Source: Escherichia coli
GTDB lineage: Bacteria; Pseudomonadota; Gammaproteobacteria; Enterobacterales; Enterobacteriaceae
Direction: 5' to 3' (one strand)
Length of the DNA: 64,000 nt
Assembly (NCBI RefSeq): GCF_030384885.1
Contig: NZ_CP128613.1
Shown: positions 1,661 through 3,564 of the stretch, piece by piece
Layout: each line of letters starts with the position of its first letter
Position numbering within the stretch: position 1 is the first letter of the stretch
The notes under the pieces: model-generated
Database searches by the model: none
What the model saw: only the letters and a program-made list of their open reading frames with translations
Told to the model about the DNA's origin: nothing
Made by a program: the position numbers and the translations under genes

Positions 1661-2356
1661 ATGCTGAAGCGTTTCTTTATTACCGGTACAGACACTTCTG
1701 TAGGGAAAACGGTGGTTTCCCGCGCATTGCTACAAGCGTTAGCCTCCCAGGGAAAAACGGTTGCGGGATATAAACCCGTAGCGAAGGGGAGCAAAGAGAC
1801 ACCCGAAGGGCTGCGTAATAAAGATGCCCTGGTGTTGCAGAGTGTTTCAACTATTGAACTGCCTTATGAAGCAGTTAATCCTATTGCCTTAAGCGAAGAA
1901 GAAAGTAGCGTGGCGCACAGTTGCCCAATCAATTACACCCTCATTTCAAACGGCCTGGCAAACCTGACCGATAAAGTCGATCATGTGGTGGTCGAAGGTA
2001 CTGGCGGTTGGCGCAGTCTGATGAATGATTTGCGTCCGCTCTCTGAATGGGTGGTGCAGGAACAACTGCCGGTGTTGATGGTTGTCGGTATTCAGGAAGG
2101 TTGCATTAACCATGCACTGCTAACAGCTCAGGCGATTGCCAACGACGGGCTGCCGCTCATTGGCTGGGTGGCTAACCGAATCAACCCAGGACTGGCGCAT
2201 TATGCGGAAATCATTGATGTGCTCGGTAAAAAACTTCCGGCACCGCTCATTGGTGAACTGCCTTATCTGCCGCGCGCCGAACAGCGTGAACTGGGGCAAT
2301 ACATTCGCCTATCCATGCTGCGCAGTGTGCTGGCGGTAGATAGAGTCACGGTGTAA
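1661..2356 (+). CDS. ynfK: Dethiobiotin synthetase paralogue (BioD2)
   Basis: Protein [17 protein letters not shown]... with P-loop GTDTSVGKT; ATG at 1661 after GGAG; ORF-track start 1649 is an N-terminal extension. Confidence 0.88.
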
Positions 2357-3564
2357 CGTCCGCGAGATTACCGACGCAATTACGCAGGCAATCAATAAAC
2401 CGGGGAGTAGCTGATACTCCCCGGTCATTTCACATATCATCAACGTCGACATAATCGGCGCGTGCGTGGTTGCCGCCAACAGTGTCGCCATCCCGGTCAA
2501 TCCGAGTAAAAGCGTAATTTCTTCGCCATCAGGGAACCATAATCCCAGGCTACGACCATACAACATGCCAATGGCAAGACCGATAAATAGCGTCGGTGTA
2601 AAGACACCACCGGGTGCGCCGGAACCGCTACTCGCCAGCACGGCACACAGTTTACAAAGGAAGATCCCGGCAATGATCATTAACAGTGGTGGGGCGGTTA
2701 AAAAGGATTGTACGGTGCTATAGCCGTTGCCCCACACTGCAGGTGTGAACAGGGAAAGCATACCACGATCAACCCGCCTAGTGCCAGTTGCCAGGGCGGC
2801 GCAAGTTTGAGACTCACAAATCCACGATGACAGGCGTTCATTAACGTTAACAACAGTGGTCCGCACAGACCTGCCAGCACACCTGTACTGATAATCAGCG
2901 CATAGTCACGAGCCTGAACTGTCACTGAGAGTTGTACGCTGTAGAGTAACGCGTCGCTATGATTAATCAGATTGCTAACCAGCAATGCCACGACGGCGGA
3001 AATAATCACCGGGCCGAGAGAGGCCAACATCATAGTGCCAAACAGCACTTCGGCTATAAATAAACTGCCAGCAAGCGGGGCACGATAGGCCGCAGCCATT
3101 CCCGCCGCGGCCCCACAGGCGATCCATAATTTCCACTCCTGGCGTGGCGTAAAACGCTGAGCAAAACAGGAGGCGGCAAGGGCAGCTAAAAGAATCATCG
3201 CACCTTCGCGACCAATTGCGCTGCCGCTAGTTACTACCAGCAGAGAGGCAAGCGATTTAACCAGGCTTGCTGCGTAATCGAATTTACCATCGGTTTGCAA
3301 CGCTTCCATGTAATCGGTCGGCGCATGAGGGCGTTGCTGGGTAAATTTCTGCCAGCCCATCAGCAACAAACCCGCCGCCAGTCCGCCGAGCGCCGGAGTT
3401 AGCAGCCGTCGCCACGGAGAAAGATTCGTCGCTGCATTGACCAGACTGCCGGAGTCATTATTGAGGAACAGCCATTCCAGTAGCAGCATCGCGTGACGAA
3501 ACGCGGCAACGGCAAAGGCCGCAAGAATACCGACTATTGTTGCGATAAGCAGACGGCGAAACAT
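2309..3564 (-). pseudogene. clcB: ClC-family voltage-gated chloride channel ClcB, disrupted by a -1 frameshift near 2763-2764
   Basis: Two overlapping minus-strand ORFs (2698..3624 and 2309..2866) in different frames together cover about 418 aa of a ClC channel; GREG motif in the first, GxFxP (GGVFTPT) in the second; switch at ATCGTGG-TATGCTT. Confidence 0.8.

Follow-up and report, generated by a model that had tools for sequence, protein, structure and literature searches.

We describe here the clcB locus of an Escherichia genome, analysed within a 64,000-nucleotide stretch of DNA (the window), in which a gene of the ClC family of anion transport proteins is distributed over two overlapping minus-strand reading frames (Table 1). 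One open reading frame extends over 2698..3624 and includes the K-12-type start (MFRRLL) at 3564, with an alternative, PGAP-type start (MHHLH...) at 3600; the second, in a different frame, extends over 2309..2866, is open upstream as far as a GTG at 2866, and overlaps the first by 169 nt. The gene order dmsD-clcB-bioD paralogue-mlc is kept at this locus in both the window and the reference. The bioD paralogue (ynfK, 1649-2356) is convergent with clcB and shares 48 nt with its 3' end (2309-2356), as is also the case in the reference genomes.

Table 1. Features of the clcB locus and of the divergent end of the window (window coordinates).
Feature	Position	Strand	Description
clcB pseudogene, whole	2309..3564	minus	K-12-type start ATG at 3564 to stop at 2311-2309
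Upstream ORF (N-fragment)	2698..3564	minus	267 residues of native ClcB (GSAIGREG among them) followed by 21 read out of frame; TAA stop at 2700-2698
Out-of-frame tail of N-fragment	2701..2763	minus	21 residues, from translation
Frameshift site	2763..2764	minus	GG where relatives have GGG; one G deleted
Downstream ORF (C-fragment), counted from ATG	2309..2761	minus	150 aa, equal to ClcB residues 269-418; GGVFTP and C-terminal helices
ATG codon, Met269	2759..2761	minus	C to A at 2761; first intact codon of the downstream frame
Shine-Dalgarno-like AGGCGGG	2773..2779	minus	11 nt upstream of the ATG; pre-existing coding sequence (Leu-Gly-Gly); potential ribosome-binding site only
AbiJ-like gene	58211-59140	minus	AbiJ_NTD4 and DUF7014
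Filamentous (Inovirus-type) prophage, start	G2P 60045-61139; G5P 61151-61468; G3P 61817-63211		

Profile comparisons support the view, taken in a preliminary description made from the sequence, that the two frames are parts of one ClC gene and that this gene is clcB. The Pfam family PF00654 (Voltage_CLC, score cut-off 24.8 bits) matches the N-fragment with 140 bits over profile positions 1-213 and the C-fragment with 127 bits over positions 212-346, so that the coverage of the two is complementary. The NCBIfam ClcB equivalog NF002437 scores the repaired 418-aa protein at 863 bits, relative to a curated cut-off of 425 bits that applies to the whole-protein score, and the proteins as encoded score 535.6 bits (N-fragment, positions 12-279) and 311.8 bits (C-fragment, positions 280-428). 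Both characteristic motifs are present but in separate frames, as had been described, the upstream ORF containing GREG (residues 118-121) and the downstream ORF containing GGVFTP, the GxFxP motif (residues 319-324).

The break is accounted for by the loss of a single base. The affected run (GTG-GGT) spans codons Val267 and Gly268, and alignment against the closest complete genome, that of strain 2013C-4282, places the deletion in the minus-strand GG at 2764-2763, equivalent to the plus-strand CC at 2763-2764 to which the preliminary description had assigned it. All 5,388 complete genomes that match the junction align with one extra base, and the two that were aligned directly have GGG. A comparison with other E. 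coli clcB alleles had been proposed as a check, and here 2013C-4282 proves to be intact with GGG; re-insertion of one G into the window sequence yields a single frame of 418 aa from MFRRLL, or 430 aa from the PGAP-style start, and the repaired 430-aa protein is that of 2013C-4282 except for L269M. The uninterrupted frame of about 418 aa that a functional clcB would have is thus lacking, with the deletion falling after codon 267 and a stop following 21 codons on. Across both ORFs combined only Gly268 is lost, and the repaired translation and the profile comparison reveal no further degenerative mutation in either half. A second change was overlooked in the preliminary description, as was a near-identical genome that has this change in an intact frame. 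It is a C to A substitution on the minus strand, at 2761 and three bases beyond the GG run; it converts codon 269 from CTG to ATG (Leu269 to Met) and is synonymous in the shifted frame (GTC to GTA).

The preliminary description had left two explanations standing, pseudogenisation and a homopolymer sequencing error; the first is upheld by the presence of the allele in independent assemblies and the second fares poorly, longer homopolymers in the window being correct. Public collections already include a protein identical to the 288-aa frameshift product (P0001, CAD6038821.1), which occurs on 50 contigs in 72 index blocks (NCBI, ENA and Logan), these contigs ranging from under 2 kb to 1.2 Mb, and the exact 150-aa downstream product is present in the protein collection as P0016. 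An ENA megahit contig (ERZ19650275, k-mer multiplicity ~372) has an identical junction and a single SNP, at window position 6928, over 13.6 kb, and the Logan assembly of SRR10343271 shares with that contig both the junction and the SNP at 6928 and has one more SNP relative to the window, as well as a prophage in ynfE. These two independent assemblies, of Illumina type, are thus identical to the window at the junction yet distinguishable from it, and because they differ by SNPs and by the prophage at least three distinguishable genomes share the frameshift allele.

The behavior of the window at longer homopolymers is also informative. In a 58-kb comparison of the window with 2013C-4282, 6 substitutions and 5 indels separate the two sequences. 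In rspA (window 14609) the window has G7 and 2013C-4282 has G6, and in dcp (window 21253) the window has T8 and 2013C-4282 has T9; in both cases the window ORF is full-length and the reference is annotated as frameshifted, so that it is probably the 2013C-4282 reference, and not the window, that has residual errors or real lesions at these sites. Since the window assembly is correct at these long runs, an error at a run of three bases is unlikely. One could still suppose that the missing G is an error of sequencing or assembly and that the gene is intact in the organism, given that the site is a short G run and that the frame is intact, with GGG, in a near-identical assembly (CP078573.1). However, the same junction was recovered by other assemblers from other reads, in genomes that differ by SNPs and a prophage, the exact product recurs on 50 contigs, the window is right at G7 and T8, and a three-base run is an atypical site for such an error. 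We regard this explanation as highly improbable, and these comparisons argue that the one-base deletion is genuine and inherited.

The allele has a narrow distribution. A 1,401-base query (window 2250-3650) matches 5,420 of the 5,426 complete RefSeq E. coli genomes, with 95-99% identity in all matched genomes except 2013C-4282 (NZ_CP027579.1), where identity is 99.9%; clcB of this strain is annotated as intact (430 aa), and only two differences separate it from the window over the 1,401 bases. The next closest match is EC42405 (98.0%). Because these two best matches are listed as cryptic clade I strains (PMC10100065), and because the identical intact ClcB protein also occurs in TW10509, the source strain is placed by its sequence within Escherichia cryptic clade I, very close to 2013C-4282. 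None of the complete RefSeq E. coli genomes carries the frameshift allele, the best match to an 81-nt junction query among 5,388 being 97.6%, which corresponds to the presence of both differences, the deletion and the substitution; only a small sublineage therefore carries the allele. Intact ClcB of the same lineage is far commoner, with proteins on 480 and 299 contigs relative to 50 for the frameshift product. A scan for the exact 40-mer junction gave 0 matches in GTDB species representatives and 0 in JGI metagenomes, and is uninformative.

The wider region has several other points of difference between the window and its relatives. Strain 2013C-4282 contains a Stx1a prophage of approximately 62 kb (NZ_CP027579.1 893,417-955,313) inserted in ynfG, a gene that is uninterrupted in the window, where the prophage is absent and the flanks abut, at 5804-5810, with a 7-bp overlap of the alignments. 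The sister strain represented by the Logan contig (L009 1-4150, SRR10343271), which has the clcB frameshift, carries a phage integrase and prophage genes (KilA-N) in ynfE, truncating ynfE to 369 aa. Relative to 2013C-4282, the window also has an in-frame 3-bp deletion of a CTG repeat unit in tam (window 40932) and a 9-bp insertion (ATTCCTAAA) at 50475-50483, between lsrK and an autotransporter gene. Collinearity with 2013C-4282 stops after hipA, and the divergent region (58126-64000) contains the AbiJ-like gene and the start of the filamentous prophage.

The order in which the two clcB changes arose is addressed by CP078573.1 (GCA_019269295.1), a 4.73-Mb chromosome and the one assembly that encodes a full-length ClcB with Met269 (WP_218675671.1). 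Over 13.6 kb it differs from the window only in having GGG rather than GG and in a private T-run change upstream of clcB (window 3684-3688). The relevant states are CTG at codon 269, GGG and G at window position 6928 in 2013C-4282; ATG, GGG and G in CP078573.1; ATG, GG and G in the window; and ATG, GG and T in the sister contigs L008 and L009. The series from 2013C-4282 through CP078573.1 and the window to L008 and L009 is thus nested and free of homoplasy. Because CP078573.1 combines the ATG with an intact GGG, the L269M substitution probably came first and the deletion second, although this order is uncertain because the intermediate is a single assembly that has private insertions and is not among the RefSeq complete genomes. 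When CP078573.1 (L010) was compared over 21 kb, two private single-base insertions beside homopolymers were found, at 9912-9917 and at 15673 (GTATTTT to GTTTTTTT and CCTAAAAA to CCTGAAAAA), neither of which is shared by four other close genomes, and its consensus may contain long-read errors.

The closeness of the two changes deserves comment. With ~6 SNPs in 58 kb, we estimate the chance of two lineage-specific changes falling within 4 bp as ~6 SNPs x 8 bp / 58 kb, or ~1e-3. Because this is unlikely by chance, and because there is one witness to the intermediate state, it is possible that both changes arose as a single complex event (GGGTC to GGTA), with CP078573.1 being either a true revertant, in which a G was regained and L269M persists as a scar, or an assembly error. 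The separation of 3-4 bp in a lineage with so few SNPs is in keeping with this, as are the private single-base insertions elsewhere in CP078573.1, the sole assembly with the intermediate state. But a search for a direct or inverted template nearby that could have supplied the new 9-10-mers found none, it is improbable that a chance error or insertion would strike exactly the junction site, and the nested series is explained without further assumptions if CP078573.1 is the intermediate. We therefore give a single event a minority share of the probability, and prefer a stepwise origin in which L269M came before the deletion. A template-switch or quasi-palindrome origin was considered and rejected, since neither strand of the window contains the 9-10-mers a second time and no 7-8-mer copy lies close by. 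A single event would alter the history only, and the frameshift in the window is real either way. Were CP078573.1 a true +G revertant, this would point to selection for retaining ClcB.

The position of the break within the protein suggests a severe consequence. Alignment with the ClcA structure (E ~1e-26) sets ClcB V267, G268 and M269 opposite ClcA C302, G303 and L304. A hydrophobic segment (residues 260-274) has its peak where the break occurs, and an AlphaFold2 single-sequence model of the repaired protein has residues 257-271 as helical, with a mean pLDDT of 48.3 that makes the model too poor to use. The G303/L304 position of ClC-ec1 is one that we take to be within transmembrane helix K. 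The N-fragment retains the gating glutamate but lacks GxFxP and all of the C-terminal helices, and ends in 21 aberrant residues. Because a break inside a transmembrane helix parts the half containing the gating glutamate from that containing GxFxP, ClcB transport function is expected to be lost. ClcA and ClcB are reportedly redundant in extreme acid resistance, and as a consequence of this redundancy loss of clcB should be tolerated and a small phenotype is expected; clcA itself lies outside the window.

We conclude with considerable confidence that clcB in this genome is a genuine, recent and clonally inherited frameshift pseudogene, with an L269M allele as its likely background and loss of function as the expected outcome. 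One G was lost from the GGG at codons Val267-Gly268 of an allele that most likely already had L269M, so that a ribosome passing residue 267 reads 21 wrong codons and then a stop, giving a product that is cut off midway through a transmembrane helix and is missing all of the C-terminal helices as well as the later half of the anion pathway, where GxFxP lies. The deletion has been passed on clonally in a small sublineage, the loss of clcB presumably being tolerated through clcA redundancy. Because L269M most likely predates the deletion, the adjacent ATG would be a by-product and not an adaptation, and the lack of further decay is expected because the lesion is very recent, the genomes differing by few SNPs per 10 kb.

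There are two ways in which a functional product could nonetheless be made, and both are less plausible than a simple pseudogene. One is that the frameshift is bypassed, either by programmed -1 ribosomal frameshifting or by phase-variable slippage, with full-length ClcB as the outcome. Restoration of the frame does need a -1 shift, and there is an overlap of 169 nt between the frames; however, a scan of the overlap (2698-2866) in the zero frame found no slippery heptamer of the form X XXY YYZ. Phase-variable contingency loci are recognized by a long homopolymer or a short tandem repeat, and the run of two or three G bases here (GGG in relatives, GG in the window) is far below the length of such a locus. 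Bypass by either route seems to us extremely unlikely, close to negligible.

The other is that the N-fragment and a C-fragment initiated at the AUG of Met269 assemble into a working ClC, the two ORFs constituting a functional split gene. The ATG falls exactly at the first intact downstream codon, and the Shine-Dalgarno-like sequence upstream of it forms an anti-Shine-Dalgarno duplex of -6.7 kcal/mol; among the 2,351 ATGs of the window this ranks within the top 5.5%, and it is stronger than the value for two thirds of 30 annotated starts. Gly268 alone is missing, neither half has decayed further, and the closeness of the two changes is hard to attribute to chance. Against this, the ATG is most likely older than the deletion, as the L269M allele of CP078573.1 suggests, the cut is within a hydrophobic helix and not in a loop, the N-fragment carries its 21-aa aberrant tail, the AUG sits inside a translated ORF behind a long spacer, and the missing decay is expected anyway for a very recent lesion. 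A functional split gene is therefore a very unlikely alternative to the pseudogene that we favor, albeit one that, if true, would make clcB a naturally split membrane transporter whose cut falls inside a helix.

The frameshift allele is already in public databases, and there is nothing unusual in this recent pseudogene, which derives from a well-known gene. In annotations of this clade I sublineage, clcB should be treated as truly pseudogenised rather than as misassembled, and the allele could act as a clonal marker for the sublineage. It adds one more case of recurrent clcB loss in E. coli and has little import beyond annotation; wider interest would attach to it only if the split-protein reading were true, which is unlikely. 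A literature search on clcB pseudogenes found nothing relevant.

Several known systems can be compared with this allele. The nearest intact one is E. coli ClcB (YnfJ/MriT) of strain 2013C-4282 (WP_071986689.1), which has the same synteny and from whose DNA the window departs by two adjacent changes only; relative to it, the window has Met in place of Leu269 and a frame that is interrupted after Val267. Other truncated clcB genes in complete E. coli and Shigella genomes have products of 257, 277, 304, 355 and 152 aa. Among these, BDD27438.1 (277 aa), WP_301727868.1 (304 aa) and STH73857.1 (355 aa) reflect independent nonsense or frameshift lesions, and EGI96482.1, a 152-aa clcB fragment of Shigella boydii, is another independent lesion. 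They differ from the window allele in lesion position and lineage, and its junction is present in none of them, supporting the view that loss of clcB is recurrent in E. coli and proceeds by independent truncations.

ClC-ec1 (ClcA; PDB 1OTS, 1KPK and others) belongs to the same fold family as ClcB (phmmer E ~1e-26, residues 5-402), and the two proteins are alike in conserving the gating glutamate in GREG and the GxFxP motif. ClcA is however a paralogue only, and the features of a ClC-ec1-type Cl-/H+ exchanger, GSGIP and the internal proton-transfer residue Glu203, are absent from ClcB in the alignment. ClcB residues of about 78-90 and 172-175 (window about 3040-3330, minus strand) align with the GSGIP and Glu203 regions of ClcA, with HAPT..DY standing opposite GSGIP (Ser107) and a valine opposite Glu203. 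The best PDB match, 3ejz, also has valine at the aligned Glu203 position (IIEV), and the second-best match has IIEE. The missing serine motif and the replacement of Glu203 by valine suggest that ClcB is possibly not a canonical exchanger, and both are family-wide traits of ClcB that are not specific to this allele.

Finally, we note that functional channels have reportedly been reconstituted from complementary fragments of CLC-1, and split CLC-1 and CLC-0 channels are likewise said to have been obtained from complementary pieces. These resemble the window clcB in that two complementary pieces of a ClC protein are encoded separately. They differ in that the cuts were engineered in loops or between domains and the pieces were deliberately co-expressed, whereas the cut in clcB is accidental, lies within a helix, and leaves a second piece that is putative.
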